The notes: generated by a model from the sequence alone, not told the origin. DNA of 64,000 nt from Candidatus Micrarchaeota archaeon (GCA_021811435.1 JAJZOR010000003.1:20434-84433); one strand, 5' to 3'. Shown: positions 22,240 through 42,154, numbered from the stretch's first letter. Made by a program: numbers and translations.

Positions 22240-22333
22240 TTGCGTAGCATATATGGGATGAATACGACAAGCAATCCTTACATCTCCATAATGATTAACA
22301 GCTTATAACAGGAAGAATTTTTGCAGGAGGCAA

Positions 22334-22630: not shown

Positions 22631-22785
22631 GCAGGTATGCAGAGATACCAGAGCGGAGAGCAAGAAAAGTTATATAAACTAATGGACCATATTTAATTAT
22701 AGATAAATTAAATGGTGCAATTTTATTTTAAAATTATATTTTCCTTACTTCTGATTGATGATGCTATTAATTAAAAGGTAATTTT

Positions 22786-24212: not shown

Positions 24213-24216
24213 AGCT

Positions 24217-25209: not shown

Positions 25210-25225
25210 TCCAGAGAGTTGCATT

Positions 25226-26254: not shown

Positions 26255-26259
26255 TTGAC

Positions 26260-27489
26260 TTATATAGCGCTGTCAAATCCGTCATCATGTGGATTCGTTA
26301 CTGCGTGTGTATACATTTTTTCGTACCTATCAACCTGTGTTTTCCAGTCCCATCTCCTGACGGTGGCTGGGCCATTCTTCCTAAATAGAGCATCGTATTC
26401 CGGATTTCTCAATACCTCAAATATTGCATCTGCAAGCATTTTGGTGTTTAGCGGATCTATGACAATGGCGTTGTATTTGTCCTTCGCATAATCTTCAACG
26501 CCATACCTGGTTGTGATTACCTTAGTCCCGCATGCCATGGCTTCCAATGGGGGAAATGGCAGGCTCTCAGCCCAGGATGCAGTTATTGCAACGTCTGCAT
26601 TTTGATATAGGAATGCGAGCTCATTTTCGCTAGGGGTTTTAACATAGGTATGCTCCACAGGACATTGATCTGCTAGATAGGGCTGGTTGCCGTACATGAT
26701 AAGATGCAGTTTTAGCTCAGGCTTTTTCTTCTTTAGGTAAATTAGCGCCTTAAAGACATTGTTCAATCCTTTCCACTCGTTTCCTTTTCCGCCTTTTCCT
26801 AGCGTAATGATGTAGTGCTTTGACTTGTCAGAGAATATGCGCTGGAGCTTTTCCGATTCCTTCTTTTTGGTATTGAATATTGAAGTGTCTAGAAAAATCA
26901 GAGGGGCGTATTGCGATTCGACGGAAAGCTCCTGCTTTAGTTTCTTTTGTAGCCAGAGAGAATTTGCAGTTATATTAAGAGGCAACCTGCATACCTCCAT
27001 GTACTGTCTGTATAGGTAATAATTGTTGTAGTATTTGCTACCTTCAAAGAGTGGTAAGTAGTGTTGGAGGTGATAGAATTTGGCAGTTCCATTTCTTGAT
27101 CTGTCTATCGCATATGCGCATAAGTCTTCTATTGCTATCGATACATCGCATTCAGGTATGTGTGAAGCAAGCACCCTTTCTAAGTCGATGGTAAGTAGTG
27201 GGTGTACCTTGTTGAGTGCAGCCCTGGCGAATGAAAGCGTTGCCCTTGCCTTCTCATGACTTAGTTTTGTTACTATTTTATTCATAAGGTAGGAATTTGA
27301 TATCTTACCTACCCTGATGAAATCAACCTTTTGATTTATAGGATACTTCATATTTGCTTTATTGTCCAACGATGTTACGCTTACATCATGTCCTCTGTTA
27401 GCTAGTTCATTTATCAGCCCTGTGTGGGTTTTCAGTGCGCCTGACCATGTCAGATCGCGCAATAAATAGTTTATTCTCATGATAACCAC
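26260..27489 (-). CDS. GT4-family glycosyltransferase
   Basis: WAESLPFPPLEAMACGTKVITT. Confidence 0.75.
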   Translation of the reverse strand: MVIMRINYLLRDLTWSGALKTHTGLINELANRGHDVSVTSLDNKANMKYPINQKVDFIRVGKISNSYLMNKIVTKLSHEKARATLSFARAALNKVHPLLTIDLERVLASHIPECDVSIAIEDLCAYAIDRSRNGTAKFYHLQHYLPLFEGSKYYNNYYLYRQYMEVCRLPLNITANSLWLQKKLKQELSVESQYAPLIFLDTSIFNTKKKESEKLQRIFSDKSKHYIITLGKGGKGNEWKGLNNVFKALIYLKKKKPELKLHLIMYGNQPYLADQCPVEHTYVKTPSENELAFLYQNADVAITASWAESLPFPPLEAMACGTKVITTRYGVEDYAKDKYNAIVIDPLNTKMLADAIFEVLRNPEYDALFRKNGPATVRRWDWKTQVDRYEKMYTHAVTNPHDDGFDSAI

Positions 27490-27537
27490 GTTGTGCGTAT
27501 TACGGGCAGCTCAGGAATGCTGGCTGCTATGTTTTTA

Positions 27538-28641
27538 CTAAGACACTTTCCTAAGCATCTCTATCCATGTAGCCAGATTGCCTCCGCACATCGAGATGAA
27601 CGGGTGTTTTTCCTTCTGCATCGCCTTTGCAATAGCTTCCACCTTTTCAAATACATCCTTGCTTGAGGTATCAGCTGCGTCTATTATCTTGAAGAGGTGC
27701 TCATTTGCCTCAAGCCCAGGCGCTTCGAATCCAAGATCCATGAATGAGCTCCTTGGAGCCTTATTATGCTGCAGGAGGGGCTTGCCGTTGATTATGTAGT
27801 AATCTAGTTCATCTATCAGTTTCTTTGCCACTAAGCCTGACCATATGTCATCAAACCTATCAACTTTCCATGGATTATCCTTCATCTTGAACTGATAGAA
27901 TCCAGGGATGACTTCTCTCCTGAAAGCGAGATTCATTGAACATACGGTAACATAGTTGCCTTTTGCCACCACAAAATTCTCTTTGTAATCACCTGCATTC
28001 ATGCGTGTCTTGGACTGCCCGTTCAAATCTCCTTCAGACAATATAGTCACTGAATCAAGATCCGGGATGTTTGTCCATAAGCCTTGGGACATGCCAATCT
28101 TTGAAACATCTATTTCCCTCTTGGATATTTTTTCGTATCTTGCGGCAAAGGGATATCCTCTAGGATATAGATGGTACTTGTTGAAACTCTGATGCAATAC
28201 ATTTGCAAACTTCTTGTCGCTGCTTAATTCCGTTATTTTCCCCTTAAAATTTAAGTTCTTGATGTGTCCACCTATAAAGTCAAATTGATCTATCGGAAGT
28301 GTATCATCATCTATTGTAAAGCCGTATTTATGTCCATGCATCCACATGTAAAGAAGCCCAAACGACTCTTCGGATCGGTGTTTCTTAGGAATCAGCTCTT
28401 CATGGTATTTTTGTAGCCCTAAAGCCTGCATTTCCTTGTCCCTATCACGCTGGTTGAGTACAGTTGCTTCTACTCCGTGTTCTTTGAATACATTGACATA
28501 CTGCGCCTTGTCTACGTGATCTTCGGTTAGCACCATGAATTCTGCCTTCGAGAGATCAACTTTGTGCATCTCTGCATTATTTAGGTAAGGCTCTACAAAA
28601 TCGGCACCACGTATGGTGGGCAACATTATTAGTGAATCCAC
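27538..28641 (-). CDS. reversibly-glycosylated-polypeptide (RGP/GT75, UDP-arabinopyranose-mutase-like) family protein
   Basis: TIDDDTLP, RGYPF..R, NLAFRREV.P, and DRFDDIWSG...KK..D pattern, as in plant RGPs. Confidence 0.6.
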   Translation of the reverse strand: MDSLIMLPTIRGADFVEPYLNNAEMHKVDLSKAEFMVLTEDHVDKAQYVNVFKEHGVEATVLNQRDRDKEMQALGLQKYHEELIPKKHRSEESFGLLYMWMHGHKYGFTIDDDTLPIDQFDFIGGHIKNLNFKGKITELSSDKKFANVLHQSFNKYHLYPRGYPFAARYEKISKREIDVSKIGMSQGLWTNIPDLDSVTILSEGDLNGQSKTRMNAGDYKENFVVAKGNYVTVCSMNLAFRREVIPGFYQFKMKDNPWKVDRFDDIWSGLVAKKLIDELDYYIINGKPLLQHNKAPRSSFMDLGFEAPGLEANEHLFKIIDAADTSSKDVFEKVEAIAKAMQKEKHPFISMCGGNLATWIEMLRKVS

Positions 28642-28747
28642 ATTATAACCGTTATAATTACTGAGATGGTTATTACAATAAAAAGTTATTAAGCTTTATC
28701 ATTGATTAATAAATGTCTTCTGGCTTATTACTAAATACTTGGTGTGA

Positions 28748-29638
28748 TTGAATATGTTCTCCTTAACTGATGAGATATCAAAGATAAGCGATCTCAGAAG
28801 GAATTTGAGGAATTGGTACGTAGTACCCCTTTTCAAATATGGAATCATTAAGAAAGCAACTCTTACTACAAAGAGAGGGGATTCGATGGAGATAAACAGT
28901 ATGCAGGACTACTACACGTTTTTCAGTGGAAGAGTATGGGGCATGCAGAAACTCGGACGCGTAAACGATAGGATTAAGATAACAGATAACATGGTAATCC
29001 TAGATGGCAAAACCAAGTTTGCATACCATAAGGAAACAGAGCTTGGAGCGTCACTTCTTATGCTGGGCGAGGTATACAAAGAAGAATATGGGTGCCTTGA
29101 TGTACAAGATAAAATCGTAATAGACATAGGCGCAAACATAGGCGATTCCACCATCTATTTTGCAACTAAAGGCGCAAAGAAAGTGATTGCGTTTGAACCG
29201 TTCCCTGCAACTTATAGGCAGGCAAAAGAAAACATAGGACTGAATGGTCTGGACAAGAGGATAGAACTGTTGAATATGGGTGTTGGGGGCAAATCAGAAA
29301 CGATATTCCTGCCGGATACGTTTATAGGAACAAGCAGTATGGACTCAATAGGGAAGAGCGCTTTAAGTGGGGATACGCACGAAGGGGTACCGATCAGGAT
29401 AATAACGCTAGATGAGATAATCAAGATGTATCCTAATGATGAAACTGTATTGAAGATGGACTGTGAAGGATGCGAATATGCATCGCTACTCGATGCAACA
29501 GACGAGACCCTCAAACATTTCTCTGAAATCATATTGGAATACCACGAGAAAAGCGGGAAATTGATGGAGAGGTTCAGAAAAGCAGGTTTCACCACTGAGT
29601 TGAAAGCAGGGAGGATAATGCTCGCAAAACGAAACTGA
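28748..29638 (+). CDS. FkbM-family methyltransferase
   Basis: VIDIGANIGDSTIYFA...FEPFP and LKMDCEGCEYASLL. Confidence 0.8.
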   Translation: MNMFSLTDEISKISDLRRNLRNWYVVPLFKYGIIKKATLTTKRGDSMEINSMQDYYTFFSGRVWGMQKLGRVNDRIKITDNMVILDGKTKFAYHKETELGASLLMLGEVYKEEYGCLDVQDKIVIDIGANIGDSTIYFATKGAKKVIAFEPFPATYRQAKENIGLNGLDKRIELLNMGVGGKSETIFLPDTFIGTSSMDSIGKSALSGDTHEGVPIRIITLDEIIKMYPNDETVLKMDCEGCEYASLLDATDETLKHFSEIILEYHEKSGKLMERFRKAGFTTELKAGRIMLAKRN

Positions 29639-29912
29639 TAATGCTGTGTTGAATTAATCGTGGCATGGTGAATTACTGTTATATCGACTGGCACAATTGA
29701 AGGGTTTTGCGCCATAGGAGTAAGCGATTCATTCAACACCGCAATCCTGAGACGCTTAAGCGGACGGGACTCTAATATCATTGTAGTTGCATTAATCTTG
29801 TAGTGGAATATCAATTCAACAACCCCACCGCAAGCGGTCGGGCATTCCTCGAAACAATAAAAAGTTTTTAGAATCAAATTAGAATCGAAACGTATTTGAT
29901 TTAAGGTGTCAT

Positions 29913-29932
29913 ATTACTTTTCAAGGTTGCTA
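29913..29932 (+). repeat. solo IS630 right-end inverted repeat (IS relic or MITE end)
   Basis: ATTACTTTTCAAGGTTGCTA matches the right end of the IS at 18959-18978 (ATTACTTTTCAGGGTTGCTA) in 19 of 20 positions. It is followed by TA and then the wzx ATG. Confidence 0.75.
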
Positions 29933-29934
29933 TA

Positions 29935-31506
29935 ATGCCCAAACATAAAGCTAATGGCACTAAGACCCTTGATTTGGGCGTCAAGCACGCCGGTATTGCA
30001 TCTTTTGTATTTATAGCGAAGGCTATCTCCCTAATTGTTGGGGGGGTTATGCTAATTGTGATAACAAGATTACTTGGACCTGCTCAATATGGAATTTATA
30101 CGCTCTCACTTGCTATTTCAGGTTTTATAGTAGGATTTGGTTCATTGAATATATCTGCATATTTCAATAAAAATATCCCTAAGCTAATTGCCAAAGGGGA
30201 GGAAAGGGAGATAGGTATCATTGTCGGGGACAGCTTGCTTTTCCTTTTGTTTTTATCTCTTATGTTAATTTTTATAGGCGCAGTCCTTGCAGGCTTCATA
30301 GCTGAAACAGTATTCGGTTCAGTATCTTACATAGAATATGTTTACTTGGCATTATCCACAGTATTGTGGTATATTATATATTCAACTTTTACGAGCGTAC
30401 TTGTAAGCTTTGGTATAGCTAGGGAGGTGGGGATTGCTTCGGTATGCGGTTTGATTTTCCAATCGGTATTGAGCATAATACTTGTATCACTTGGTTTTGG
30501 CGCTGTTGGAGCGATTTTAGGCTACACTGCAAGCCTTCTCATAGGATCCGCTATTGTATTGTATTACATAAATGCGCATGTCCCGATAAGATTTACATTG
30601 GGAGGCATAAGAAATCGATTGCATGAAATGATAATGTTTTCAATACCTCTGACGGTTACGGCTATAATAACTTCATTGACTGCTAATTTTGTGGTCATTT
30701 TTTTTGGTATTCTTCTAATTTCGACAAGTGCGATTGGAGAATATGGTATTGCAGCTAGGGTTGGGCAGGTTTTTGATGCAGTAAGTGGAGCGATAAGTGT
30801 TGTACTTATACCGATGTTTGCTACTGCCGTATATAATAAGCATAGCATATCAAAAATTAGCAAACTATACCATGATTCAGTTTACTACAACCTGTTGTTT
30901 ACAACACCACTTATAGTATATGCTTCAGTATTATCAAAGGATATTATCTTAACGTTATTTACATCCGCTTATACACTTGCAATAATATATATGCCACTGG
31001 TTAGCATTGGCATGTTAATATCATTCTTATGGAATGCTGCTTATTATATGACAATAAGTATAGGTAGAGTTGATAAGGTATTAAGATTTGCAATAATTTG
31101 CACTGCGATACAGTTAGTGTCAATGCTTATACTTGGTGAGCTTTTTGGGGTCATAGGTGTCATTATAGCATATTTTTATATAGGTAACATTGCATTTGCT
31201 TTCTTTTATTTCAGAGGGCTGCGCAATTTTGGTATGCACATAAAATTAGGCCCTATACTTAAGCTGATTATTTCTAACCTTATTTTTGGAGCTGCTTTAG
31301 TCCCCTTGGTATTCTTGCAAATTAGACCGTTGTACGTACTTATAATCGGCGTTGTGCTAGGGCTTATATTATATCCAATTGCACTTATAAAGATGGGCGC
31401 GCTTTCGAAAAACGAGCTTGATGTACTTTATCAGGTAAGTAATGGCATGCCTTTTATCGGAGGCATCTTTAGGGTATTACTACAATATAGTGAATTTTTC
31501 TTATGA
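29935..31506 (+). CDS. Wzx-like oligosaccharide flippase (MOP superfamily)
   Basis: 523 aa with about 14 hydrophobic helices, the layout typical of polysaccharide biosynthesis protein family members. Confidence 0.7.
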   Translation: MPKHKANGTKTLDLGVKHAGIASFVFIAKAISLIVGGVMLIVITRLLGPAQYGIYTLSLAISGFIVGFGSLNISAYFNKNIPKLIAKGEEREIGIIVGDSLLFLLFLSLMLIFIGAVLAGFIAETVFGSVSYIEYVYLALSTVLWYIIYSTFTSVLVSFGIAREVGIASVCGLIFQSVLSIILVSLGFGAVGAILGYTASLLIGSAIVLYYINAHVPIRFTLGGIRNRLHEMIMFSIPLTVTAIITSLTANFVVIFFGILLISTSAIGEYGIAARVGQVFDAVSGAISVVLIPMFATAVYNKHSISKISKLYHDSVYYNLLFTTPLIVYASVLSKDIILTLFTSAYTLAIIYMPLVSIGMLISFLWNAAYYMTISIGRVDKVLRFAIICTAIQLVSMLILGELFGVIGVIIAYFYIGNIAFAFFYFRGLRNFGMHIKLGPILKLIISNLIFGAALVPLVFLQIRPLYVLIIGVVLGLILYPIALIKMGALSKNELDVLYQVSNGMPFIGGIFRVLLQYSEFFL

Positions 31507-31550
31507 AAATTTACGCAAGTGCCAAATTATTTATATGTGTATTGAACTGT

Positions 31551-32453
31551 TTATTCTCCACCCATAATTTTACTTACACCTTCCTTAACTGAAGTAAATT
31601 TGAATGGGCCGATTGTGCTGAGCAGTTTTCTTGTATCCGCCTTGGTCAGGTATTGATAACTCGATAATGGATTCTTTACATATTTTTTATTATCCTTATT
31701 TATTAAATTTGCAATTTCATTGAAAGCAGTTGCGTTTCCAGTGCCAACATTGTATACCGCGTCTTTGCCTTTTTCAAGCAGCAACAGGATTATTTTTGAC
31801 GCATCATCTACGAATATGTGGTCGCGTGCTTGGCTGCCATCGCCGTATATCACCAATGGCCTGCCAGCTTTATTCTCTCTGATAAAGTTTGTCATTATGC
31901 TAGCGTAGTTTCCTTTATCGTTCTCTCCCGGGCCGAATACATTGACGAAACGCATGCCCACTATATCCATCTTGTAGATGTCCCTGTATGAATCGGCTAT
32001 CATCTCATTAATTAGCTTTGACTTTGCATAGTGATTCCTTTGCTTCTTTATATCTATAATTGAGGTCTCTGAGAAGCCGCTGTCGCTTGTGTATACCGCA
32101 GCACTTGAAGCGTAAAGAACCTTTTCGCAGCCACTTGATACAGCCGCATCTAAAACATTCAGAAATCCGCTTACATTTACCGAATAGCACTTTGCTAAAT
32201 TCTTTTCAAATTCTACGTTCGATGTTATAGCAGCTAGGTGTATCACTTTTTGTACACCTTCTATAGCTTCTTTGACCAAGGTTGAATCTAATATGTCTCC
32301 CTTAATCATTTTTAGGCCTTTGATTTTACAATCCCTGTGATCCAGACCGATAACTTCATAGCCCTCGTCTAATGCGTGGCGTGCGAGGTTTGCACCTATA
32401 AATCCAGAACATCCAGTTATAAGCAGCCTCCTTTTTTGATTTTTTTGCATCAC
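31551..32453 (-). CDS. extended SDR epimerase/dehydratase
   Basis: LLITGCSGFIGANL, YAKSK (YxxxK). Confidence 0.75.
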   Translation of the reverse strand: MMQKNQKRRLLITGCSGFIGANLARHALDEGYEVIGLDHRDCKIKGLKMIKGDILDSTLVKEAIEGVQKVIHLAAITSNVEFEKNLAKCYSVNVSGFLNVLDAAVSSGCEKVLYASSAAVYTSDSGFSETSIIDIKKQRNHYAKSKLINEMIADSYRDIYKMDIVGMRFVNVFGPGENDKGNYASIMTNFIRENKAGRPLVIYGDGSQARDHIFVDDASKIILLLLEKGKDAVYNVGTGNATAFNEIANLINKDNKKYVKNPLSSYQYLTKADTRKLLSTIGPFKFTSVKEGVSKIMGGE

Positions 32454-32474
32454 TTACTTACCCTTATTATACTT

Positions 32475-33467
32475 TTATTCTCCGACATAAACAATCCTGC
32501 TCCCTAGAGCCTCGAACTCGAAAGGCTCCTCCCTTAGTTCCGGCAATGCGGCTTTTATCGCACCTCGTTTTGACGGATTTACGAACAGCAGCAAGAACCC
32601 TCCGCCACCGGCGCCTATCAGCTTGCCGCCCTCAGCCCCTGCGGCCAAAGCCTTATCATATATTCTATCGATTTTCGGGTCGCTTATACCATCGCTCAAA
32701 GTTCTCTTAAGTTTCCAATTTAAGTCTAATAGTCTGCCAGTTTCTGCCCATTTGCCATTACATATTGAATCGAAGAGCTCGTATGAAAGGTCACGCATTG
32801 CTTTATATTCATTCAGATGCTCCGATATCGTTGCAGTCTGCTTTGTATGTATGCTCGTTGAACTCCTCTGCACGCCGGTGTAAAGCAGCATTAGATGCTT
32901 CTTTAGCATCATATGGTCGCTCTCCTTAGTTATGACTGGTTTTAGCACCACGCTCTCATCATCGTTGAATTCCATGAGTTTTATACCCCCATAAGCAGCG
33001 ATGTACTGATCCTGCTTGCCGCCAGGTTCCTTCAATATGCCCCTTTCTATGTGGACCGCTTCATTGGCCAGTTCCTTCATGCTAACGAATTCGCCCTTCC
33101 ATGCGTGCAGCGCATTTAACAATCCGACAAGGAACGTGCTACTGGAGCCCAATCCCGTACCGCCAGATGGTATATCTGAGATGCTCACGATCTCGATGCC
33201 GCCGTCTATTTCGAGCAGCCTTAACGCCTCCCGCACTGTAGGATGCTGTATCTTGTCTACGCTATCTACTATCTCGGTCTTTGAATAGCTAATCCTTATG
33301 TGATTGTCGAATTTTTTGTTAACGACTATGTGTATGTACTTGTTTATTGCTGCGGAAACCACAGCTCCTGGACCATTATGCAGGTAATAACCAGGAAGGT
33401 CGGTCCCGCCTCCTACGAATGTTATCCTGAGTGGCGTTTTTGTCATTATCATGCGTTCGCCGTACAT
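32475..33467 (-). CDS. hddA: GHMP sugar kinase, D-glycero-D-manno-heptose-7-phosphate kinase-like
   Basis: PLRITFVGGGTDL, GLGSSST, GGKQDQY, GAGGGGF. Confidence 0.7.
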   Translation of the reverse strand: MYGERMIMTKTPLRITFVGGGTDLPGYYLHNGPGAVVSAAINKYIHIVVNKKFDNHIRISYSKTEIVDSVDKIQHPTVREALRLLEIDGGIEIVSISDIPSGGTGLGSSSTFLVGLLNALHAWKGEFVSMKELANEAVHIERGILKEPGGKQDQYIAAYGGIKLMEFNDDESVVLKPVITKESDHMMLKKHLMLLYTGVQRSSTSIHTKQTATISEHLNEYKAMRDLSYELFDSICNGKWAETGRLLDLNWKLKRTLSDGISDPKIDRIYDKALAAGAEGGKLIGAGGGGFLLLFVNPSKRGAIKAALPELREEPFEFEALGSRIVYVGE

Positions 33468-33481
33468 GATGTGCCACTTTG

Positions 33482-34402
33482 CTATTGCCCGTTCAAGAGC
33501 TTCGAAATGCCTTCGTCAAGGCTTATCTTGGCTTTAAATTTGATTAGTTTTTCCGCTTTGGACGTGTCAGCCAGGTTCTCCATCACGTAGTTCTTAGTGG
33601 GCATCTTGACGTATTCAGCCTTTACATCTGTGCCTAGGCTCTTGTTTATCTTGTCTACCAACTCGTTAAGGCTATAGTTCCTTCCGGTACCAACATTGAA
33701 TATGTCGAACCCCTTTATATCTGCTACTTTTATCAGTGCATCAACTACATCGTCTACGAATACAAAGTCGCGCCTTTGCAGCCCATCGCCGTATATCACC
33801 GGCCGCTCGCCCTTTTTAATAGCCCATATGAACTGCGTAACTAGATTGGCGTATTCTTTCTTGGCCTCCTCGTGCCTGCCATAAACCGAGAAGAAGCGCA
33901 TGGCGGCAGCGTTCACCCCGAAAAGCTTCGCATAAAGTTCAGATAGCCTCTCGGCGAGTATCCTGCCTTCCGTATAATAATCGGTCACAGGCGGCACGAT
34001 ACTCTCTTTGTGTGGTGGGGTAATACCGCTGTATATTGATGATGTAGATGCAAAAACCAGGGTGGCTTTGTTTTTCTTCGCGTATTCTAATATGTTTATA
34101 ACGCCCTCTATGACTTCATTCAGGAGGTTAGGGTTTTTCTTGTACATCGGGGATGACGAATACATCCCTAGATGAATTATAAGATCTGCATTAATATTGT
34201 GCTTGGATATGTTCTTTGAATCGTCTTGTATAAATTTGACATTTCCGGTCTTCTGGGCGGCTTCCAGGTTCTTCAAAGAGCCCGTATTTAAGTTGTCTAT
34301 TACGTAAACGTTGTTTTCCGGAGCAAGCCTTTCGACAAGATTGCTGCCTATGAAACCAGCGCCGCCAGTCACTATTATGTTCCTGCCTTTTAAGTTTTCC
34401 AT
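33482..34402 (-). CDS. extended SDR epimerase/dehydratase (HldD-like N-terminus)
   Basis: IIVTGGAGFIGSNLV....VIDNL. The expected YxxxK position reads YTEGR by eye. Confidence 0.7.
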   Translation of the reverse strand: MENLKGRNIIVTGGAGFIGSNLVERLAPENNVYVIDNLNTGSLKNLEAAQKTGNVKFIQDDSKNISKHNINADLIIHLGMYSSSPMYKKNPNLLNEVIEGVINILEYAKKNKATLVFASTSSIYSGITPPHKESIVPPVTDYYTEGRILAERLSELYAKLFGVNAAAMRFFSVYGRHEEAKKEYANLVTQFIWAIKKGERPVIYGDGLQRRDFVFVDDVVDALIKVADIKGFDIFNVGTGRNYSLNELVDKINKSLGTDVKAEYVKMPTKNYVMENLADTSKAEKLIKFKAKISLDEGISKLLNGQ

Positions 34403-34444
34403 ATTTACACCACTAAAAATCCTATATTTTATATGCCATTAGCG

Positions 34445-35002
34445 TCATAGCCTGTCCTCCACTATCTTCGAGAGCATGTGGCCCACAGCTATGTGCACCT
34501 CCTGTATTATGGATGTCCTCGTGCTATCAACTTTAAGTATATATTGCGCTTTATTGGCAAGCTTGCCGCCGCTTTTGCCCGTAAAAACTATAGTCAGGCA
34601 TCCGAGTTCCCTGGCCTTATCAATCGCCCTTATAACGTTTTCCGAATTTCCGCTCGTAGAGATGCCTATCACTATGTCGCCTTCGTGTGCGAACGCCTCA
34701 ATCTGCCTGGAATAGACATGGTCATATCCGTAATCGTTGCTGATTGCCGTCAAAACAGATGTATTTGCGTGCAAGGCCAGGGCAGGCATAGGCCTGCGCT
34801 CCTTTTCGAAACGGCACACGAATTCTGCCGCTATATGCTGCGCATCGGCCGCGCTTCCTCCGTTGCCCATCAATATCAGCTTATTTCCCTTCAGCATCCT
34901 TTTTGCTATCTCTTCACCGAGTGTATAAACGAACTCAGGATCAACTGACAGCCTGGCGTCTGCTCCATCCTTTAGATAATCCTTGATGCTTTTTATATCC
35001 AT
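34445..35002 (-). CDS. gmhA: phosphoheptose (sedoheptulose-7-phosphate) isomerase
   Basis: GNGGSAADAQHIAAEF, NDYGYD.V..RQ, ISTSGNS.N. Confidence 0.85.
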   Translation of the reverse strand: MDIKSIKDYLKDGADARLSVDPEFVYTLGEEIAKRMLKGNKLILMGNGGSAADAQHIAAEFVCRFEKERRPMPALALHANTSVLTAISNDYGYDHVYSRQIEAFAHEGDIVIGISTSGNSENVIRAIDKARELGCLTIVFTGKSGGKLANKAQYILKVDSTRTSIIQEVHIAVGHMLSKIVEDRL

Positions 35003-35052
35003 CGCAAGACCGCTTTTTAAGCCGTTAGAACCGTTATGAATTAAGCAGATTA

Positions 35053-36030
35053 TTATAAATATTTTGTCGCATTTGAATCGCGCACCAGCGTATCTACCGC
35101 ATGCGTCACAACTTCAATCGAATCTGCATACTTTAGCCTTATACCTAACCCTAGCATTTTGGAATTGTCCATGTAGGTATCTGGAACATCGCCAGGCCAT
35201 CCCTCCACCGATCCTGTGTACTTGATTTTTGCGTCTGGCGCAACTCTGCCTGTAACCAACTTCGCTATATCCTTCACGCTGGTCTGGCCATAGGTAGCCA
35301 AGTTCAGTATCATGTCGGGCTCGGCCTTTTCATAAGCCATCAGCATGGCGTTCACGCAGTCAACCACATCTATGTAGGCTTTCCTTTGTTTTCCATTGCC
35401 CAGCACTTCTAATTCCGACATGTTACGCTTCAATTTCCTTATGAAATCGACCATTACGCCGTGCGTCTGGTTATTACCGACAACATTGGCAAACCTGTAT
35501 ATGTAGTATTTAACCCCGTATAGGTTGCCGTAGGCCGTAAGCAGCCCCTCGCACGCTAGCTTTGACGCAGCATACAACGATATAGGCTTCAGCGGCCCGT
35601 AGTTCTCAGGCGTGGGTTTGACTTCAGCCCTGCCATAAACCGCGCTAGAAGAGGAATACATTATTCTGTCAACATCATTAAGCCTTGCGGCTTCGAGGAG
35701 GTTGTGCGTAGCTATTGGACCCTGCTCCATGTCTAAACCTGTGTTTTTTGTGCCTAACTGTATATCTGGGTTGGCAGCAAAATGCACTATGATCCCTGGC
35801 TTTTCCTCTTTTATGGTTTTATTTAGAAGTTTGACATCAAGCAGATCGCCCTTTACAAACCTGAATTTTTTATAGGTTCCAAAGCGCCGTATGAGTTCGA
35901 ATTTTCCTGAGCTTAAATTGTCGTATACGACAAGCCTTGAGGCCCTCCCTATCAGTTGCTCTACCATATTGCTGCCTATGAATCCTGCGCCGCCGGTAAC
36001 AAGGATGCGTTTACCTTCTATCTTGGGCAT
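35053..36030 (-). CDS. extended SDR epimerase/dehydratase
   Basis: ILVTGGAGFIGSNMV, YAASK. Confidence 0.75.
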   Translation of the reverse strand: MPKIEGKRILVTGGAGFIGSNMVEQLIGRASRLVVYDNLSSGKFELIRRFGTYKKFRFVKGDLLDVKLLNKTIKEEKPGIIVHFAANPDIQLGTKNTGLDMEQGPIATHNLLEAARLNDVDRIMYSSSSAVYGRAEVKPTPENYGPLKPISLYAASKLACEGLLTAYGNLYGVKYYIYRFANVVGNNQTHGVMVDFIRKLKRNMSELEVLGNGKQRKAYIDVVDCVNAMLMAYEKAEPDMILNLATYGQTSVKDIAKLVTGRVAPDAKIKYTGSVEGWPGDVPDTYMDNSKMLGLGIRLKYADSIEVVTHAVDTLVRDSNATKYL

Positions 36031-36042
36031 ACCACATACACC

Positions 36043-36576
36043 TTAATTACTTCCAAATCGCTTTGCTTCCTCCCGCTTTATTATGCTGAGAACATCTGAA
36101 AAGTTATCTGCATAAAAATCTGCTTTTCCGCTGCCTGTTTTATTCCTTACTTTTATGCATTTTATTCCTGCATTTCTTGCCATTTCGATGTCTATTTCAG
36201 CATCACCAATGACAAAAGACCTATTTATATCTATGTCAAAATCGCCCTTAGCGTCCTCCAGCAGCCCCAATGCGGGTTTCCTGCACCTGCAGCCGGCAGC
36301 CGGCAGGTGTGGGCAGTAGTATATGGCATCAATCCTGCCGCCTCTTGCGGCTATATCGTGCTTTATTTTTTCATGCATCGATTTTAAGTCATTCTCAGTA
36401 AAATAGCCGCGCCCAACACCGGATTGATTTGTAATTATTATTATGTAATATGTCTTGCTGAGCTCGCTCAAAGGTTTGTATATGTCGTCGTACAGCTTGA
36501 TCTCTGATGCGTTCTTGCAGTAGGGGCAGTCCTTGCTTATAGTGCCATCCCTATCGATGAATAATGCAGGTTTCAT
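36043..36576 (-). CDS. gmhB: D,D-heptose 1,7-bisphosphate phosphatase (HAD, HisB-N-like)
   Basis: FIDRDGT, TNQSGVGRG, CPH...C.CRKP, GD...D. Confidence 0.8.
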   Translation of the reverse strand: MKPALFIDRDGTISKDCPYCKNASEIKLYDDIYKPLSELSKTYYIIIITNQSGVGRGYFTENDLKSMHEKIKHDIAARGGRIDAIYYCPHLPAAGCRCRKPALGLLEDAKGDFDIDINRSFVIGDAEIDIEMARNAGIKCIKVRNKTGSGKADFYADNFSDVLSIIKREEAKRFGSN

Positions 36577-36602: not shown

Positions 36603-38975
36603 TCATTGCCTTGTTATTGTTATGTTTTGCACCAAGACTAGCTGCTGGCTGCCATTGAAGCTGCGACTTACATTCTGGACGAAGAACAGCGAATTGCCAA
36701 TCGGGCCAGAAAGCAGCGTTACATTAACCACGTACGATTCCATCCCTTGGGCTACGGGTATTTTAGCTATTCTAGTCGGTACGCCTTCTGGGCTGAACGA
36801 GTCGATCGAGAGGCCGGCGTTTCCAAAATTTGTAGTGGCTTCCAGCCTTATGCGCGCGCTTACAGGAGACGGAATCTGCTGGGCATTGTAATTTCCGCCG
36901 GACTGGTTTGCGTACGGCGCCACTACGAATATCTCGCCGTATAAGGCGCTCGCATTTATGGCAGGCGTCCATGGGTACTGGACGGTGTTGTTAACCCGCA
37001 GCTGCATCTGGTGCCACTGGGTCAACATGGGATACGCGACAAAACTCCTATAAGGCCGATATAGGCCACTGGCCGGATTAAGTGTTGCATTTACCGTGGA
37101 AAACACGATTGTCTGGTTATCTGAATAAACGGGATTCCCAAACAGCCCCTGGAGGTAGCTTACTAATGCATATGCAGAAGACTGGCTGTACGCCTTAAGG
37201 TTGACTATGACGAAGGCCGTGTTGTATTCCCTTAAAGACAGTATAGACTCGTTTCCAGGATTTTGGTTAACCGGGGAGGGCAAGAATGCGATTGTGCTAT
37301 TTTGCTCGAGATAAGTTGCGAGTGGTACGATAGGTATGCGGTACAGCGATAATTCCTGTGTCACATTGAACCGCGTCGTATCGCCACCTATTATAGGCTT
37401 ATGGGAAGCAGTAGTATAGTATGTGGCTTGGGCTCCGAATAACCCTGGCTGGCTGGAATAGGGATCGGGCAATATCGGCAACTCCAGCACTGAGAAATTC
37501 CCTGCTATGCTGCTTAGTTGGTTATAAAAGCTCGGAATCGGGGCCGGGGTGGCGACTTGCCGGAGCAGTGAGCCGCTCAGCGCTATGCCGTTGTTCTCGA
37601 TTAGGAAAATCAGCGTGAATACTGCGGCAAGCATGATCACATTGCGCTTACCTTCTCCGCTTGCTTGGAACCTTGAAGCGAGATCATTAAACCCGAACGC
37701 CGCCAGCATCGCTATTGAAACGCTGAATATGAGTTGGAACCTTCCCGGCTCCCTTATGACGCTCAACGGACCTAGCGAATGATAAAGCACGTAAAGGATG
37801 GCTGCGGGCCCCATCGAAAGCAGACCGAATATCACAGCCAGGCCCAGCCACAGCGTGCCCCTAGTGTAGTCCCTGCGCTTGTAATCCGTGTATAGGCCGT
37901 ATAGGATCAATGCTATAGCGCTATAGCCTATGTAAGCCACTGTCTCGGTCGGGTCTGGGCCGAAAACCGAGGTGAAATAAGAGCTTGGGTTGGCATCGAA
38001 TAGGCCATTGTAGTAGCTTGGTATGAGGAAGGAGCCTATGTTCGCACTCCAGATGGAGCTGTAGGTAAGGTTATTCAGCTGATTAGCTTCCGAAAGCCCA
38101 TTTGGCTGCGTTATCACCCCTATAATAGGCAGGAAGCCCCATGAGCCCAGTATGAACGCCACGATTATGGAGAATACCAAGGCAGCCAAGAATCGCCTAT
38201 CCGAAACCTGCTTCCGCGTCTCCCTCATTATGGCGTATGCCACGAGTATGAGCGTTAGAGCAAGTACCAGTTCTATGCCCTGTTCGACATCGCCCATGAA
38301 TATGGCGAGGACGAAAGATGCTGACAGCCCTATAGCGCTGTAAAGCTTGCCGTTTTCGCGTACCATGCGCAAGAAAAAGTATATGGCCAGCGGGATCCAC
38401 TCTATGTTTATCCAGTCTATGTGGGCGTACGCCTGGGCTATGTGGAATGAACTGAAGGCAAAGACGAGGCCGGCCACGAACGCGGCCGTTTTGTTCTTTA
38501 CGATGTAGTCGCTGAGCATGAACATCGTAAGGCCGGACAGAGCGAAGCCTATGAGCAGCATGACGTTATAGGCAAATTGCAAGCTAACCGCCTGGAACGG
38601 CACAGAGATTAGCGATGCTATTGGCGCCATGGTCTGGTAGACCAGGCTTGAGCCTATTGGCCAATAAAGCAGATTAGTGTAGTAGAAACTCGTATGCAGC
38701 GTGAACGTCGCGTATCCGACCCACCATATGTCCCACAGGTTCTGGAACGTGTCCCCGCCGGAGCCCGGTGCTAGCGCCGTTATATTGCTCGTCACCGGGG
38801 CCAGCACCACTGCTGCGATTAGCGCATAAATGGCGAAAAGCGCTATGCCGAGCCTGAGATTGTGGTTCCAGAGCAGGCTTTGTAATCTATTTTTTGTTTT
38901 AGCTCCTTTATTTTGGGACGCATCATCGATCTTATCTGGTGCGCTTGATTGCCCTACTTGATCGAAAACCATCAA
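36603..38975 (-). CDS. large polytopic membrane protein, probable GT-C-type glycosyltransferase
   Basis: 790 aa with more than 10 TM helices and a large external C-terminal domain. The first loop carries GGDTFQNLWDIWWVGY. It has no WWDYG-type OST motif. Confidence 0.5.
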   Translation of the reverse strand: MMVFDQVGQSSAPDKIDDASQNKGAKTKNRLQSLLWNHNLRLGIALFAIYALIAAVVLAPVTSNITALAPGSGGDTFQNLWDIWWVGYATFTLHTSFYYTNLLYWPIGSSLVYQTMAPIASLISVPFQAVSLQFAYNVMLLIGFALSGLTMFMLSDYIVKNKTAAFVAGLVFAFSSFHIAQAYAHIDWINIEWIPLAIYFFLRMVRENGKLYSAIGLSASFVLAIFMGDVEQGIELVLALTLILVAYAIMRETRKQVSDRRFLAALVFSIIVAFILGSWGFLPIIGVITQPNGLSEANQLNNLTYSSIWSANIGSFLIPSYYNGLFDANPSSYFTSVFGPDPTETVAYIGYSAIALILYGLYTDYKRRDYTRGTLWLGLAVIFGLLSMGPAAILYVLYHSLGPLSVIREPGRFQLIFSVSIAMLAAFGFNDLASRFQASGEGKRNVIMLAAVFTLIFLIENNGIALSGSLLRQVATPAPIPSFYNQLSSIAGNFSVLELPILPDPYSSQPGLFGAQATYYTTASHKPIIGGDTTRFNVTQELSLYRIPIVPLATYLEQNSTIAFLPSPVNQNPGNESILSLREYNTAFVIVNLKAYSQSSAYALVSYLQGLFGNPVYSDNQTIVFSTVNATLNPASGLYRPYRSFVAYPMLTQWHQMQLRVNNTVQYPWTPAINASALYGEIFVVAPYANQSGGNYNAQQIPSPVSARIRLEATTNFGNAGLSIDSFSPEGVPTRIAKIPVAQGMESYVVNVTLLSGPIGNSLFFVQNVSRSFNGSQQLVLVQNITITRQ

Positions 38976-39147
38976 TAACGCACCGGCAAAAAGTGAATCG
39001 GGATTTCAATTACTATTTGGGACAAAGGATAAATAACAGTTACGCTTAGATTCAACTTGGTATCTATACCTATAAGCAGTAGACTGCATTTCTGCATAAC
39101 AGTTTTAAACTCTTACTGGCATATTATGTCCTGATGCCGGTGTATCA

Positions 39148-40128
39148 ATGATTATAGTACGAAGCCCATTGCGCATTTCTCTTGGAGGGGGCGGCACAGA
39201 CCTGCCATCTTACTACTCAAACTACGAGGGCTTTTTGGTCGCGGCTGCTATAGACAAATACGTGTATATAACTGTGCATAAGGCATTCGAGAAAGAGATC
39301 ATACTCAAATACTCAAACATGGAGCATGTGCAATCAATCGAAGAAGTGCAGCACCCAATAATCAGGGAGGCGCTAAGACTGGTAAACATAGAGAATCCGC
39401 ACCTTGAGATAACAAGCTTGGCCGATGTACCGTCAGGCACAGGACTGGGCTCCTCTGGCAGCTTCACATGCGCGCTGTTAAAGGCGCTGCATACTTACAA
39501 GAAGGAAATCGTGCTCAACAAGGATATAGCGGAGGAGGCATGTCACATAGAGATTGATGTCCTAAAGGAACCGATAGGCAAGCAGGATCAATATATATCC
39601 GCATTCGGCGGCATAAATGCCTTAAAATTCCACAAAAACGGCAGGGTTGAGGCAGCGCCGCTAAAGCTATCAGACGAGACTCTGTACAGCCTTGAGGATA
39701 ACCTGCTACTGTTCTTTACGGGCTTCTCCAGATCCGCATCTGAGGTCCTTAAGGAGCAGGATACCAAAAGCCGGGAGAATGACAAATCGATGATCGAGAA
39801 CCTACATTTCATCAAGGATCTGGGTCTAAAGAGCAAGAACGCCCTTGAAACGGGTGACCTTGATAAGTTTGCAGAGCTGATGAACATACATTGGGAGTAC
39901 AAGAAGCAGCGCTCTAGCCTGATGAGCAATGTCAGGATAAACGCGCTGTACGACATAGCTATGAAAAACGGCGCTCTGGGGGGTAAGCTGATAGGTGCCG
40001 GCGGGGGAGGATTCCTTATGTTCTACACGAACGAGAATGTGAGGCTGCGGCGCGCCATGGGGCGCGAAGGGCTAAGGGAGATACCGTTCAACTTCGACTT
40101 TGAGGGCACAAAGGTGATGGCGCAGTGA
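39148..40128 (+). CDS. hddA: GHMP sugar kinase, D-glycero-D-manno-heptose-7-phosphate kinase-like
   Basis: PLRISLGGGGTDL, GLGSSGS, GKQDQY, GAGGGGF. Confidence 0.75.
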   Translation: MIIVRSPLRISLGGGGTDLPSYYSNYEGFLVAAAIDKYVYITVHKAFEKEIILKYSNMEHVQSIEEVQHPIIREALRLVNIENPHLEITSLADVPSGTGLGSSGSFTCALLKALHTYKKEIVLNKDIAEEACHIEIDVLKEPIGKQDQYISAFGGINALKFHKNGRVEAAPLKLSDETLYSLEDNLLLFFTGFSRSASEVLKEQDTKSRENDKSMIENLHFIKDLGLKSKNALETGDLDKFAELMNIHWEYKKQRSSLMSNVRINALYDIAMKNGALGGKLIGAGGGGFLMFYTNENVRLRRAMGREGLREIPFNFDFEGTKVMAQ

Positions 40129-40835
40129 ATATGCCACCAGTCGCAATAGTTGCGGGTGGCCTGGCGACCAGATTGCACCCGACTACGCTCAAGATTCCTA
40201 AGTCCATGATTGAGGTGGCAGGCAAACCTTTTATATACCACCAGCTGTCCCTACTTAAACGCAGGGGCGCATCAGATGTGCTTCTCTGCATCGGTAACCT
40301 AGGATCCGAGATACAGGATTATGTAGGGGATGGCAAAGCATGGGGGCTAAGGGTCCGGTACTCCTACGACGGCGAAAAGCTGCTTGGAACCGGAGGCGCG
40401 ATAAAGAAGGCCCTGGATAAGCTTCCGGATGCGTTTTTCGTGCTGTATGGCGATTCCTATTTGGACGTAGATATGGAGCCCATATTGGAGCGGTTTATCG
40501 GCTCAGGAAAACAGGCAATCATGACCATTTACCACAACAGGAACAAGCTGGATAAGAGCAACGTTGTATTCAAGGATGGCAAGATACTTAGATACGGCAA
40601 GGTTCAGATCCCTGAGATGGAATACATTGACTACGGCCTTAGCATCTTGAGCAAGCGCGTATTCGACGCATGGCCGGCGGACACCGCGTTTGACTTGGCC
40701 GACGTGTATGGGAGGCTGGTAAACACAGGGGAGATGGCAGCGTTTGAAGTGAGCCGGCGATTCTACGAGATTGGCTCAAAGAGCGGCATAAACGAGCTGG
40801 AGAGGCATATGGCCTCGGTCGGTATGGAATGCTGA
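40125..40835 (+). CDS. hddC: sugar-1-phosphate nucleotidyltransferase, heptose-1-phosphate guanylyltransferase-like
   Basis: VAGGLATRL....PK.M, GTGGA, YGDSY. Overlaps hddA by 4 nt. Confidence 0.7.
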   Translation: MNMPPVAIVAGGLATRLHPTTLKIPKSMIEVAGKPFIYHQLSLLKRRGASDVLLCIGNLGSEIQDYVGDGKAWGLRVRYSYDGEKLLGTGGAIKKALDKLPDAFFVLYGDSYLDVDMEPILERFIGSGKQAIMTIYHNRNKLDKSNVVFKDGKILRYGKVQIPEMEYIDYGLSILSKRVFDAWPADTAFDLADVYGRLVNTGEMAAFEVSRRFYEIGSKSGINELERHMASVGMEC

Positions 40836-40949: not shown

Positions 40950-41555
40950 ATGGGGGACGAGGCGTATATACAGGGTTATCTTGAGGACTGTGCCGAGATC
41001 GCTAATAAGCTCGATAGGGCACAGATATTGAAGATGTCAAAGATGCTGATAGACATAAGGTCAAGGCAGGGGAGGCTCTTCATATTGGGAGTCGGGGGCG
41101 GAGCGGGCCATGCCTCGCATGCAGTGAACGACTTCAGGAAGATAGCAGGCATCGAGGCGTATACACCTACAGATAACGTCTCCGAGCTAACCGCCAGGGT
41201 AAACGATGACGGGTGGGAGACAGTGTTTGTGAATTGGCTCAGAGGCAGCAGGCTTAACAGGAAGGACGGTGTGCTAGTATTCTCCGTAGGGGGGGGCAAC
41301 GAGGAGAAGAAGATCAGCGTTAATCTTGTTATGGCGCTAAGATACGCTAAGGATGTGGGTGCAAGCATAATGGGCGTTGTTGGAAGGGATGGCGGCTACA
41401 CTGCAAAAGTTGCGGATGCATGCGTTATAGTGCCTACGGTTAACGCAGAAACCGTTACGCCACACACAGAAGGCTTCCAGGCCGTGATCTGGCATCTGTT
41501 GGTCTCCAGCCCAGAAATGAAAAAATTCGAGATGAAATGGGAGAGCACGAAGTGA
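40950..41555 (+). CDS. gmhA: SIS-domain sugar-phosphate isomerase (GmhA-like)
   Basis: LFILGVGGGAGHASHAVNDF and VFSVGGGN. It is diverged from the 34445-35002 copy. Confidence 0.65.
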   Translation: MGDEAYIQGYLEDCAEIANKLDRAQILKMSKMLIDIRSRQGRLFILGVGGGAGHASHAVNDFRKIAGIEAYTPTDNVSELTARVNDDGWETVFVNWLRGSRLNRKDGVLVFSVGGGNEEKKISVNLVMALRYAKDVGASIMGVVGRDGGYTAKVADACVIVPTVNAETVTPHTEGFQAVIWHLLVSSPEMKKFEMKWESTK

Positions 41556-42154
41556 GCGCGAAGCAGGCAAGAAAAGCCGTTTTCCTAGACAGGGACGGCG
41601 TGCTTGACGCTTTAGTGCTAAATAAGGCCACAAACGAGTATGAGGCGCCGCATAGCGTTGGAGAACTGAAACTACTGCCCATGGTTATACCAGGGCTTAA
41701 AAGACTGCAGGCAGCAGGATACGAACTCTTCCTTGTCTCTAACCAGCCGGATTACGCCAAAGGAAAATCAACGCTAGCGGAACTGAAGCTGGTGCACAGC
41801 AGATTTGACAGGCTAATGAAGGACCATGGGGTGCATTTTAGGCAGTATTATTATTGCTTCCACCATCCGCAGGGCGTGGTACCGCGTTATTCCTATGAGT
41901 GCGAATGCAGGAAACCTAAGCCGTTCTTCCTGATTAAGGCAGGGGAAGCATACGGATTGAACCTGGCGGCTTCGTGGATGGTTGGCGACACAGACAAGGA
42001 CGTGGGATGCGGCAAGGATGCTGGAGTAAATACCATACTTGTGGGGTATAAGCTGTCAGTGAAACAGAGGGTGGACAGCGTACCGGATTACAGGGCAAAG
42101 AACTTAAATGAAGCAGTTGATATAATAATAAAGCATTCGAAAACTGGTGGATAG
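41537..42154 (+). CDS. gmhB: D,D-heptose 1,7-bisphosphate phosphatase-like HAD hydrolase
   Basis: FLDRDGV, SNQPDYAKG, C.HHP...C.CRKP, GDTDKD. Confidence 0.75.
   Translation: MGEHEVSAKQARKAVFLDRDGVLDALVLNKATNEYEAPHSVGELKLLPMVIPGLKRLQAAGYELFLVSNQPDYAKGKSTLAELKLVHSRFDRLMKDHGVHFRQYYYCFHHPQGVVPRYSYECECRKPKPFFLIKAGEAYGLNLAASWMVGDTDKDVGCGKDAGVNTILVGYKLSVKQRVDSVPDYRAKNLNEAVDIIIKHSKTGG

Follow-up and report, generated by a model that had tools for sequence, protein, structure and literature searches.

A probable heptose operon with three epimerase-type SDRs in a Micrarchaeota surface-glycan island

Heptoses are, to our knowledge, rare in archaeal glycans, the N-glycan of Thermoplasma being the one established case known to us, and we know of no glycan structure from Micrarchaeota. 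The described pathway closest to the genes reported here is the GDP-heptose route of GmhA, HddA, GmhB and HddC, in which a SIS isomerase, a GHMP kinase and a HAD-IIIA phosphatase precede the transferase. Heptose tailoring in Campylobacter jejuni involves a C4-dehydrogenase, a 4,6-dehydratase, cupin epimerases and GFS-like reductases (PMC10680097). [quoted passage not shown] The N-glycan of Thermoplasma acidophilum contains D-glycero-D-galacto-heptose (Vinogradov et al. 2012, as cited in PMC12448462 and PMC11407970), and we found no paper on the biosynthesis of this sugar in the literature searched.

Here we describe six genes that probably constitute the heptose operon of a surface-glycan island in a member of the Micrarchaeota, located in a 64,000-nucleotide stretch of its genome (hereafter the window; GCA_021811435.1, JAJZOR010000003.1:20434-84433). 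The host genome is reduced and symbiont-type, with a size of about 1.1 Mb. The first-pass annotation of the window had placed six ORFs on the minus strand at 31551-36576, and we found all six at exactly these coordinates, intact, tightly spaced, of the same length as their homologues and with matches to the families proposed. In order of transcription, they encode GmhB2 (36043-36576, 177 aa), a HAD-IIIA heptose-1,7-bisphosphate 7-phosphatase-like protein; SDR3 (35053-36030, 325 aa), an extended SDR and probable GDP-sugar C4-epimerase; GmhA2 (34445-35002, 185 aa), a sedoheptulose-7-phosphate isomerase of the canonical GmhA type; SDR2 (33482-34402, 306 aa), an HldD-like extended SDR with Y-T-E-G-R instead of YxxxK; HddA2 (32475-33467, 330 aa), an HddA-like GHMP sugar-phosphate kinase; and SDR1 (31551-32453, 300 aa), a further HldD-like extended SDR. 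Based on the short gaps between them (12, 50, 42, 14 and 21 nt) and on the gene for a 790-aa membrane protein situated 26 nt upstream of GmhB2 on the same strand (36603-38975), the genes look like one operon and are probably co-transcribed with the latter. This polytopic protein, a candidate GT-C-type glycosyltransferase, had no match in Pfam or PDB and belongs to a Micrarchaeota-wide family that includes homologues with DUF6311 and, more remotely related, proteins with PMT_2 or YfhO; its gene keeps the equivalent position in two other species of the genus (G002 and G003). Upstream of it, a 172-bp divergent intergenic region (38976-39147), common to the operon and a neighbouring cassette at 39-42 kb, presumably holds the promoters of both units and contains A-T-rich TATA-like elements (TTTTAAA about 40 nt before the ATG at 39148, and TTATTTAT on the minus strand). 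Three further species of the genus (G001-G003) carry the six genes in identical order and with 58-84% identity, an arrangement that is not due to chance. Beyond the genus, the module is conserved in many Micrarchaeota and Thermoplasmata, across which HddA2 orthologues share 49-82% identity.

The presence of a canonical GmhA, an HddA-like kinase and a GmhB-like phosphatase agrees with the original reading of a heptose-type module, although none of the three reaches its equivalog cut-off. GmhA2 matches TIGR00441 over the full model length (186 bits, cut-off 209) and carries SIS_2 and SIS domains, HddA2 contains GHMP_kinases_N and GHMP_kinases_C domains with HddA as its top family (NF049969, 169 bits, equivalog cut-off 600), and GmhB2 scores 154 bits against PRK08942 (cut-off 178), 119 bits against the alpha-specific model NF050049 (cut-off 250) and 120 bits, over the cut-off, against the HAD-IIIA domain model. 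Adjacency to GmhA and GmhB is the basis on which we assign HddA2 as a putative heptose-7-phosphate 1-kinase. All three are diverged paralogues of the 39-42 kb set, as had been noted: HddA2 shares 40% identity with the kinase at 39148-40128, GmhA2 23% with the SIS protein at 40950-41555 and GmhB2 25% with the HAD protein at 41537-42154. The six-gene module had been taken for the second, diverged one of the pair. We regard it instead as the primary module since it has the canonical GmhA (the isomerase of the 39-42 kb set reaches only 49 bits against GmhA) and is widely conserved, whereas the 39-42 kb transaldolase cassette is missing from the sister species that keep the six genes. The side-by-side occurrence of two heptose routes holds for this genome and does not extend to the other genomes of the genus searched, where G001-G003 conserve the six-gene module and lack the cassette.

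Sedoheptulose-7-phosphate is likely supplied by a split transketolase encoded on the minus strand at 43810-45619 (TktN, 44744-45619; TktC, 43810-44757; NF004559, 322 and 319 bits), which in G002 is separated by 2 kb from the six genes and followed by a TalC-type transaldolase. We propose that GmhA2 would turn this sugar into heptose-7-phosphate, that HddA2 would phosphorylate it at C1 and that GmhB2 would take off the 7-phosphate, yielding heptose-1-phosphate for conversion, most likely to GDP-heptose, by a transferase whose gene lies elsewhere in the genome. Our analysis establishes the identities of the genes, their conservation and co-occurrence, the patterns of catalytic residues and the families in which the transferases fall, while each enzymatic step of this scheme, the nucleotide and the configuration of the final sugar are predicted. 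The operon is a variant of the known pathway and not a new kind of system; it differs from the GDP-heptose route in its archaeal host, in early enzymes that score under the equivalog cut-offs and, in this genus, in having no transferase in the operon.

Domain and family model searches detected no NTP-transferase domain in any of the six genes, as the first-pass annotation had also concluded. Relatives of the module have a dedicated PF00483 transferase with HddC or ManC as its best model, fused to the GmhB2 orthologue in G024, a genome from the same family, and adjacent to the module in G037 and L039, so nucleotide activation is part of the pathway. Only two PF00483 genes occur in the whole genome, both outside the operon. 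One is NTP1 of the neighbouring cassette (40125-40835, plus strand); the other (G000:C20:84694-85473, hereafter the C20 enzyme) adjoins an archaeal GlmM-type mutase and is not linked to the operon. Neither protein reaches the HddC cut-off of 300, with the C20 enzyme scoring 144 bits against HddC and 162 bits against mannose-1-phosphate guanylyltransferase, its top NCBIfam matches, and NTP1 scoring 83 bits against HddC and having MurU as its top family. The C20 enzyme forms one clade with the module-linked transferases of relatives (SH-aLRT 95), at just 38-39% identity, whereas NTP1 shares 26-30% identity with these and falls into a separate clade with the transferases of transaldolase cassettes (SH-aLRT 98). 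We consider the C20 enzyme, a putative general sugar-1-phosphate nucleotidyltransferase, to be most likely the activator, with NTP1 as the alternative; a single general nucleotidyltransferase would then probably serve several sugar pathways in this organism.

Activation by NTP1, with the two divergent units acting as one system in this genome, is possible but doubtful. The gene is merely 4 kb away across the common divergent region, is one of the only two transferases available and has the recorded similarity to HddC. However, its top family and clade point elsewhere, and in G001-G003, which keep the module, we found neither a Kin1-type kinase nor a transferase clustering with NTP1. It had been suggested that the module shares the HddC of its neighbour; since the sister species lack the 39-42 kb cassette, such sharing is not a conserved solution, and the module-linked transferases cluster with the C20 enzyme.

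The other suggestion had been a modified heptose, either 6-deoxy or epimerised, with HldD and Campylobacter DdahA/B/C and MlghB/C cited as known examples of SDR-type remodelling enzymes. The tailoring enzymes of the operon differ from those of C. jejuni in being epimerase-class SDRs. None of them resembles a GMD-type 4,6-dehydratase (TIGR01472; 37, 21 and 52 bits for SDR1, SDR2 and SDR3) or a GFS-type reductase (GDP-fucose synthase NF047922; 62, 63 and 60 bits), and the SDR tree places none of them with E. coli Gmd or Fcl, used here as stand-ins for the Campylobacter enzymes. A scheme of the Campylobacter DdahA/B/C or MlghB/C type is thus unlikely, as is a 6-deoxy product, and of the two modifications suggested an epimerised heptose appears the likelier product. 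In this prediction, three NAD-retaining epimerase-type SDRs would alter the stereochemistry of the sugar after activation.

The SDR phylogeny that had been called for placed SDR1 and SDR2 with E. coli HldD (SH-aLRT 96), itself a long branch of uncertain placement. HldD (E. coli RfaD; TIGR02197) is the top NCBIfam model for both SDR1 (159 bits) and SDR2 (151 bits), under the cut-off of 274.6, and each is 28% identical to the E. coli protein. The kinase of the operon is of the GHMP type associated with the alpha-anomer, GDP route, unlike HldE of the beta-anomer, ADP route. Compared with E. coli reference enzymes, SDR1 scores best against HldD (96 bits), and it conserves all residues aligned with HldD S116, Y140, K144 and K178. 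In SDR2, the triad Ser116/Tyr140/Lys144 reads T, Y, R instead of the S, Y, K of SDR1, with Arg at the K144 position in 151 of 154 family members. HldD Lys178 (E. coli numbering), which we take to be the second catalytic base, a role reportedly described by Morrison and Tanner in 2007 and by Kowatz and colleagues in 2010, has an aligned Lys in all nine SDR1 orthologues, all eight members of a Thermoplasmata SDR1-like group and all 154 members of the SDR2 family; the residue is missing in E. coli GalE, RfbB, Fcl and Gmd and in SDR3. SDR1 and SDR2 may therefore act as HldD-like two-base epimerases.

Co-occurrence ties these enzymes to the kinase to different degrees. Across 121 genomes, SDR1 and the kinase are strongly associated (odds ratio 27, p = 1.5e-9), the kinase being present in 18 of the 22 genomes with SDR1 and mostly nearby on the same contig, and SDR1 is the operon SDR with the tightest coupling to the pathway. 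The HddA-type kinase has SDR2 as its most frequent neighbour, the two adjoining each other in 32 of 50 surveyed loci; the odds ratio of SDR2 with the kinase is only 2.2-3.3, and its presence in 23 of 37 genomes without a kinase indicates a role independent of heptose too. The association of SDR1 with the kinase and the likeness of SDR1 and SDR2 to HldD make the earlier suggestion that the SDRs remodel a nucleotide-heptose plausible. It is unlikely, by comparison, that the three SDRs make other donors, such as UDP-GalNAc or GDP-hexose epimers, and owe their place among the heptose genes solely to tight operon packing. Such a role would suit the closest solved structures of SDR1, namely PelX (6WJB, the best at 135 bits), WbgU and WbpP, which are UDP-HexNAc (UDP-GlcNAc) 4-epimerases, as well as the promiscuity of the SDR3 subgroup and the occurrence of SDR2 alone among housekeeping genes and in kinase-free genomes. 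The near restriction of SDR1 to kinase-bearing genomes, the adjacency of SDR2 to the kinase and the Lys aligned with K178 in both argue against it.

Returning to the proposed remodelling of a nucleotide-heptose, SDR3 would contribute as a GDP-sugar C4-epimerase. It falls within the archaeal GDP-sugar 4-epimerase subgroup, to which its four best solved structures all belong (3EHE, 246 bits; PhGal4E_1 8RDG/8RDH, 227; 3ICP, 195; 3AW9, 179), and these closest relatives are well separated from UDP-specific GalE, with 117 bits for the next GalE, from T. maritima, and about 58 bits for the E. coli GalE structures. SDR3 has the S/Y/K triad and a GW.GDV motif in common with the subgroup; from this motif and the family placement we infer a preference for GDP-sugars. 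SDR3 differs from the described members of the subgroup in residing in a heptose operon. A different role, in which SDR3 is an LmbM-like epimerase of the 39-42 kb cassette that serves an octose-type or unusual heptose route and makes the module a two-pathway mosaic, seems improbable to us. The cassette in the window has no SDR of its own, 21 of 24 Kin1-type loci, mostly bacterial, contain an SDR3-like gene no more than 6 kb from the kinase, and SDR3 clusters with the SDRs of these bacterial transaldolase cassettes (SH-aLRT 98). However, SDR3 retains its place between GmhB2 and GmhA2 in G001-G003 (63-72% identity) and is found beside heptose genes in G024, and no transaldolase cassette was found in these four genomes. 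Decay of the module into a remnant that has lost its transferase and no longer makes a nucleotide sugar would accord with the lack of a transferase in the operon in all four species of the genus that have it, but is very hard to reconcile with the intact ORFs, conserved order and identity and retained catalytic residues, which point to purifying selection.

We therefore favour, with better than even confidence, an operon that would build a nucleotide-activated heptose with an activating enzyme encoded elsewhere and invert some of its hydroxyls for use in a cell-surface glycan. The predicted product is a stereochemically remodelled, non-deoxy GDP-heptose available to the glycosyltransferases of the island. 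Further tailoring of this sugar is possibly carried out by an RmlC-like protein (TIGR01221, 187 bits, over the cut-off), an RmlD-like protein (202 bits, cut-off 224) and SDR_24217, encoded on the plus strand at 22786-25209. RmlA and RmlB were not found in the genome, and in G036 counterparts of the three genes directly follow GmhA-GmhB-SDR2-HddA-SDR1 on the same strand.

Thermoplasma sp., Thermogymnomonas and numerous further Thermoplasmata encode orthologues of HddA2, SDR2 and GmhA2, with 57-64% identity for the first two. In one Cuniculiplasma genome, GmhA, HddA and GmhB occur and SDR2 is missing. The operon genes are speculative candidates for a route to the Thermoplasma-type D-glycero-D-galacto-heptose, for which epimerase-type SDRs would be suited since galacto is reached from manno by inversions. 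A bolder and quite tentative form of this proposal is that the D-glycero-D-galacto-heptose of archaeal N-glycans, or an epimer related to it, is made by the operon and the corresponding genes of Thermoplasmata (GmhA-SDR2-HddA, in some cases accompanied by SDR1-like genes and a transferase), and that the Arg-for-Lys HldD-like SDR2 family might represent a new class of nucleotide-heptose epimerases acting within the ring, at C2 and/or C4 for example, and not on C6.

The operon and its many relatives provide a concrete candidate gene set for heptose synthesis and epimerisation in Archaea, including a large conserved SDR family, that of SDR2, with an Arg-for-Lys active site. The reduced genome also shows how a symbiont-type organism can get by on a small set of enzymes. 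Since Micrarchaeota live attached to hosts of the Thermoplasmatales, the heptose genes common to both may, speculatively, be relevant to surface mimicry or to the recognition of hosts.

The six genes on the minus strand between 31551 and 36576 were found exactly where the first-pass annotation had placed them, with every open reading frame intact and intergenic gaps of 12-50 nt. In order of transcription, Pfam and NCBIfam models identify a HAD-IIIA/GmhB-like phosphatase (GmhB2, 36043-36576), an extended SDR (SDR3, 35053-36030), a GmhA isomerase (GmhA2, 34445-35002; TIGR00441, 186 bits, cut-off 209), a second extended SDR (SDR2, 33482-34402), a GHMP kinase with HddA as its best family (HddA2, 32475-33467; 169 bits, cut-off 600) and a third extended SDR (SDR1, 31551-32453). 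None of the six carries an NTP-transferase domain by either model set, as had been noted. The kinase, isomerase and phosphatase share 40%, 23% and 25% identity with their counterparts in the divergent cassette at 39-42 kb, and are therefore indeed diverged paralogues rather than recent copies.

The module had also been described as the second, diverged heptose set of this region, a status that genome comparison reverses. The canonical GmhA is encoded in the six-gene module; its counterpart at 39-42 kb scores no more than 49 bits against GmhA and is not recognised by Pfam SIS models. All six genes are kept in the three other module-bearing species of the genus (G001, G002 and G003), two of which (G002 and G003) retain the exact gene order, and the cassette with its kinase Kin1 was not found in any of the three. 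The six-gene module is thus the resident heptose operon, conserved in the genus, and this genome alone has the 39-42 kb cassette in addition. The cassette is a separate, self-contained unit; of 24 surveyed loci with a Kin1-type kinase, mostly bacterial, all have a transferase like that of the cassette (NTP1), 21 have an SDR3-like gene and 20 have a transaldolase.

SDR1 and SDR2 resemble HldD, the ADP-L-glycero-D-manno-heptose 6-epimerase. The HldD model TIGR02197 is the top NCBIfam match for both (159 bits for SDR1, 151 bits for SDR2), neither reaching the cut-off of 275, and among E. coli K-12 reference enzymes HldD is the best match for SDR1 and ties with GalE for SDR2. In a tree of 69 SDR sequences, one group (SH-aLRT 96) unites HldD, the SDR1 clade, an SDR1-like clade of Thermoplasmata and the SDR2 clade, leaving GalE, RfbB, Gmd, Fcl and the SDR3 clade outside; HldD forms a long branch, so its placement is uncertain. 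The lysine aligned with HldD K178 is present in 9/9 SDR1 orthologues, 8/8 members of the SDR1-like group and 154/154 members of the SDR2 family, and absent from GalE, RfbB, Fcl, Gmd and SDR3. Work by Morrison and Tanner in 2007 reportedly identified K178 as the second catalytic base of HldD. The lysine of the YxxxK motif is replaced by arginine in 151 of the 154 SDR2-family members, and a literature search for a YxxxR motif in SDRs returned nothing. Of the modified heptoses first proposed, 6-deoxy or epimerised, the former appears unlikely, since no SDR resembles a 4,6-dehydratase of the GMD type or a C4 reductase of the GFS type, and by sequence the three belong to the epimerase class. The Campylobacter-type dehydratase-reductase scheme was rejected on two grounds: no GMD or GFS model scores above 63 bits, and none of the SDRs groups with E. 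coli Gmd or Fcl, which together with RfbB, RfbD, GalE and HldD serve in the tree as class proxies for enzymes such as Campylobacter DdahA, MlghC and Cj1427.

The two HldD-like enzymes differ in how closely they are tied to heptose genes. Across 121 genomes of the order, 18 of the 22 that encode SDR1 also encode an HddA- or Kin-type kinase (odds ratio 27, p = 1.5e-9), usually within a few kb, whereas just 14 of the 37 genomes with SDR2 have the kinase (odds ratio 2.2-3.3), and SDR2 also stands alone among ribosomal-protein genes (locus L001). Around HddA2-type kinases, however, SDR2 is the most frequent neighbour: of 50 such loci, the majority from Thermoplasmata, it is present at 32, compared with 28 for GmhA, 14 for a transferase and 8 for GmhB. 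By these counts SDR1 is a predicted heptose-specific enzyme in Micrarchaeota, and SDR2, apparently often recruited to the heptose pathway, must have a wider role besides. Two SDR2 orthologues (G032:C1:722113-723018 and G084:C11:295679-296572) each contain one in-frame TGA; these genes may be pseudogenes or recoded, or the stop codon may be a sequencing error.

SDR3 is of a different kind. Its best solved structures are 3EHE from A. fulgidus (246 bits) and PhGal4E_1 from P. horikoshii (8RDG/8RDH, 227 bits), followed by 3ICP (195 bits) and 3AW9 (179 bits), both from P. calidifontis, with the following GalE at 117 bits. Since all four top enzymes belong to the archaeal subgroup of promiscuous GDP-sugar 4-epimerases (PMC12171764), SDR3 is most likely a GDP-sugar C4-epimerase, and GDP is therefore the likely nucleotide of the pathway. 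Within heptose operons SDR3 is restricted to this family. SDRs clustering with it lie within 6 kb of the kinase at 21 of the 24 Kin1-type loci (L073-L103, mostly bacterial), an arrangement that recalls LmbM, the epimerase in lincosamide octose biosynthesis.

Nucleotide activation is part of the pathway, because the heptose genes of other genera carry a transferase. G024, a member of the same family, encodes a GmhB with a fused NTP-transferase domain (483-aa open frame; L016 7639-9090, G024:C3). G037 and a named Micrarchaeota MAG (L039) have a gene for a 240-aa transferase ahead of GmhA-HddA, and I-plasma and other Thermoplasmata have a transferase gene next to SDR2. Our genome has only two PF00483 genes, NTP1 and an unlinked gene for a 259-aa enzyme (C20:84694-85473) whose start overlaps the 3′ end of an archaeal GlmM-type mutase gene (TIGR03990, 443 bits). 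In a tree of 47 transferases, this C20 enzyme falls into one clade (SH-aLRT 95) with its G001-G004 orthologues, the domain fused to GmhB in G024 and the module-linked enzymes of G037 and L039. The top models of the C20 enzyme are mannose-1-phosphate guanylyltransferase (162 bits) and HddC (144 bits). Based on this placement and these models, we favour the C20 enzyme over NTP1 as the candidate for the activating step, in which it would act on heptose-1-phosphate. No other strong PF00483 match occurs in the 0.8-Mb G024 genome, so the fusion probably activates all sugars there; together with the top models of the C20 enzyme, this suggests that one generalist of the C20-type clade serves several pathways. 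NTP1 groups elsewhere, with the transferases of transaldolase cassettes (SH-aLRT 98), and is retained as an alternative in this genome alone. As a general solution, the originally proposed sharing of the neighbour's HddC was rejected for the genus, as the sister species lack the cassette. Pfam and NCBIfam models revealed no transferase hidden within the operon.

The N-glycan of Thermoplasma acidophilum contains D-glycero-D-galacto-heptose, and a model of this glycan also fitted the density of the Cuniculiplasma pilin (PMC12448462, PMC11407970). Our literature search found no paper on the biosynthesis of this sugar. Conversion from the manno to the galacto configuration requires inversions at C2 and C4, which epimerase-type SDRs could supply and Campylobacter-type enzymes could not. 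Orthologues of HddA2, SDR2 and GmhA occur in Thermoplasma sp., Thermogymnomonas and many other Thermoplasmata; however, one Cuniculiplasma genome has GmhA, HddA and GmhB and lacks SDR2, which weakens a simple one-to-one link between SDR2 and galacto-heptose. We consider galacto-heptose a rather doubtful candidate product. In Thermogymnomonas acidicola (L042 6717-8285), GmhA is the C-terminal part of a 522-555-aa open frame; it may be fused to an N-terminal domain, or the extra length may result from the choice of start codon.

The operon lies inside a surface-glycan island (10-47 kb) on a 132-kb contig of a 1.1-Mb Micrarchaeota (DPANN) genome (25 contigs, estimated 93% complete; comparison genomes of the family and order, 0.6-1.3 Mb). 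The island encodes many glycosyltransferases, a Wzx flippase, FkbM methyltransferases, an IS630 element, an RmlC/RmlD-like pair, two Dpm1-like GT2 proteins and a split transketolase, and its G+C is below the genome average. Its left part (12000-32000), which holds the IS630 element, has a G+C of 0.34-0.42 against about 0.52 for the genome, as would fit a variable glycan region subject to horizontal exchange. Lying 26 nt upstream of the operon, and separated from the divergent cassette by a 172-bp A-T-rich stretch, is a minus-strand gene (36603-38975) for a 790-aa polytopic membrane protein, kept directly upstream in G002 and G003. This protein has no Pfam match even at E = 5, no PDB match and no similarity to the island's 783-aa protein. 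Nearly all of its homologues are Micrarchaeota 'hypothetical proteins', some with DUF6311 and distant ones with PMT_2 or YfhO, a faint lead from homologue search that suggests a GT-C-type glycosyltransferase.

The split transketolase (43810-45619), genuine by score, could yield sedoheptulose-7-phosphate directly. In G002 it stands beside the six-gene module, directly followed by a TalC-type transaldolase. This TalC/FSA type, found in G002 and G003 (L013 2457-3134; L014 19068-19745) and 35% identical to the cassette transaldolase, is missing from our genome, whose only transaldolase is the TIGR02134-type enzyme of the cassette (42155-42871, plus strand). The plus-strand RmlC (above cut-off) and RmlD-like genes (22786-24212) have no RmlA or RmlB partner homologue anywhere in the assembly. 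The SDR that follows (24217-25209, plus strand) matches RmlB weakly (87 bits, cut-off 365) and also lacks the catalytic lysine, with asparagine aligned to HldD K144 in the motif Y-T-V-A-N. In G036, RmlC, RmlD and a homologue of this SDR directly follow GmhA-GmhB-SDR2-HddA-SDR1 on the same strand (L019 11468-13833), and the RmlC/RmlD-like genes may act on the same sugar as the six-gene module.

Taken as a whole, the sequence comparisons confirm the gene content first noted and partly support its original interpretation. The module is probably an archaeal GDP-heptose-type operon with epimerase-only tailoring and a transferase supplied by an unlinked gene. It would represent a variant of a known pathway, one that includes an HldD-like SDR family with arginine in place of the catalytic lysine.
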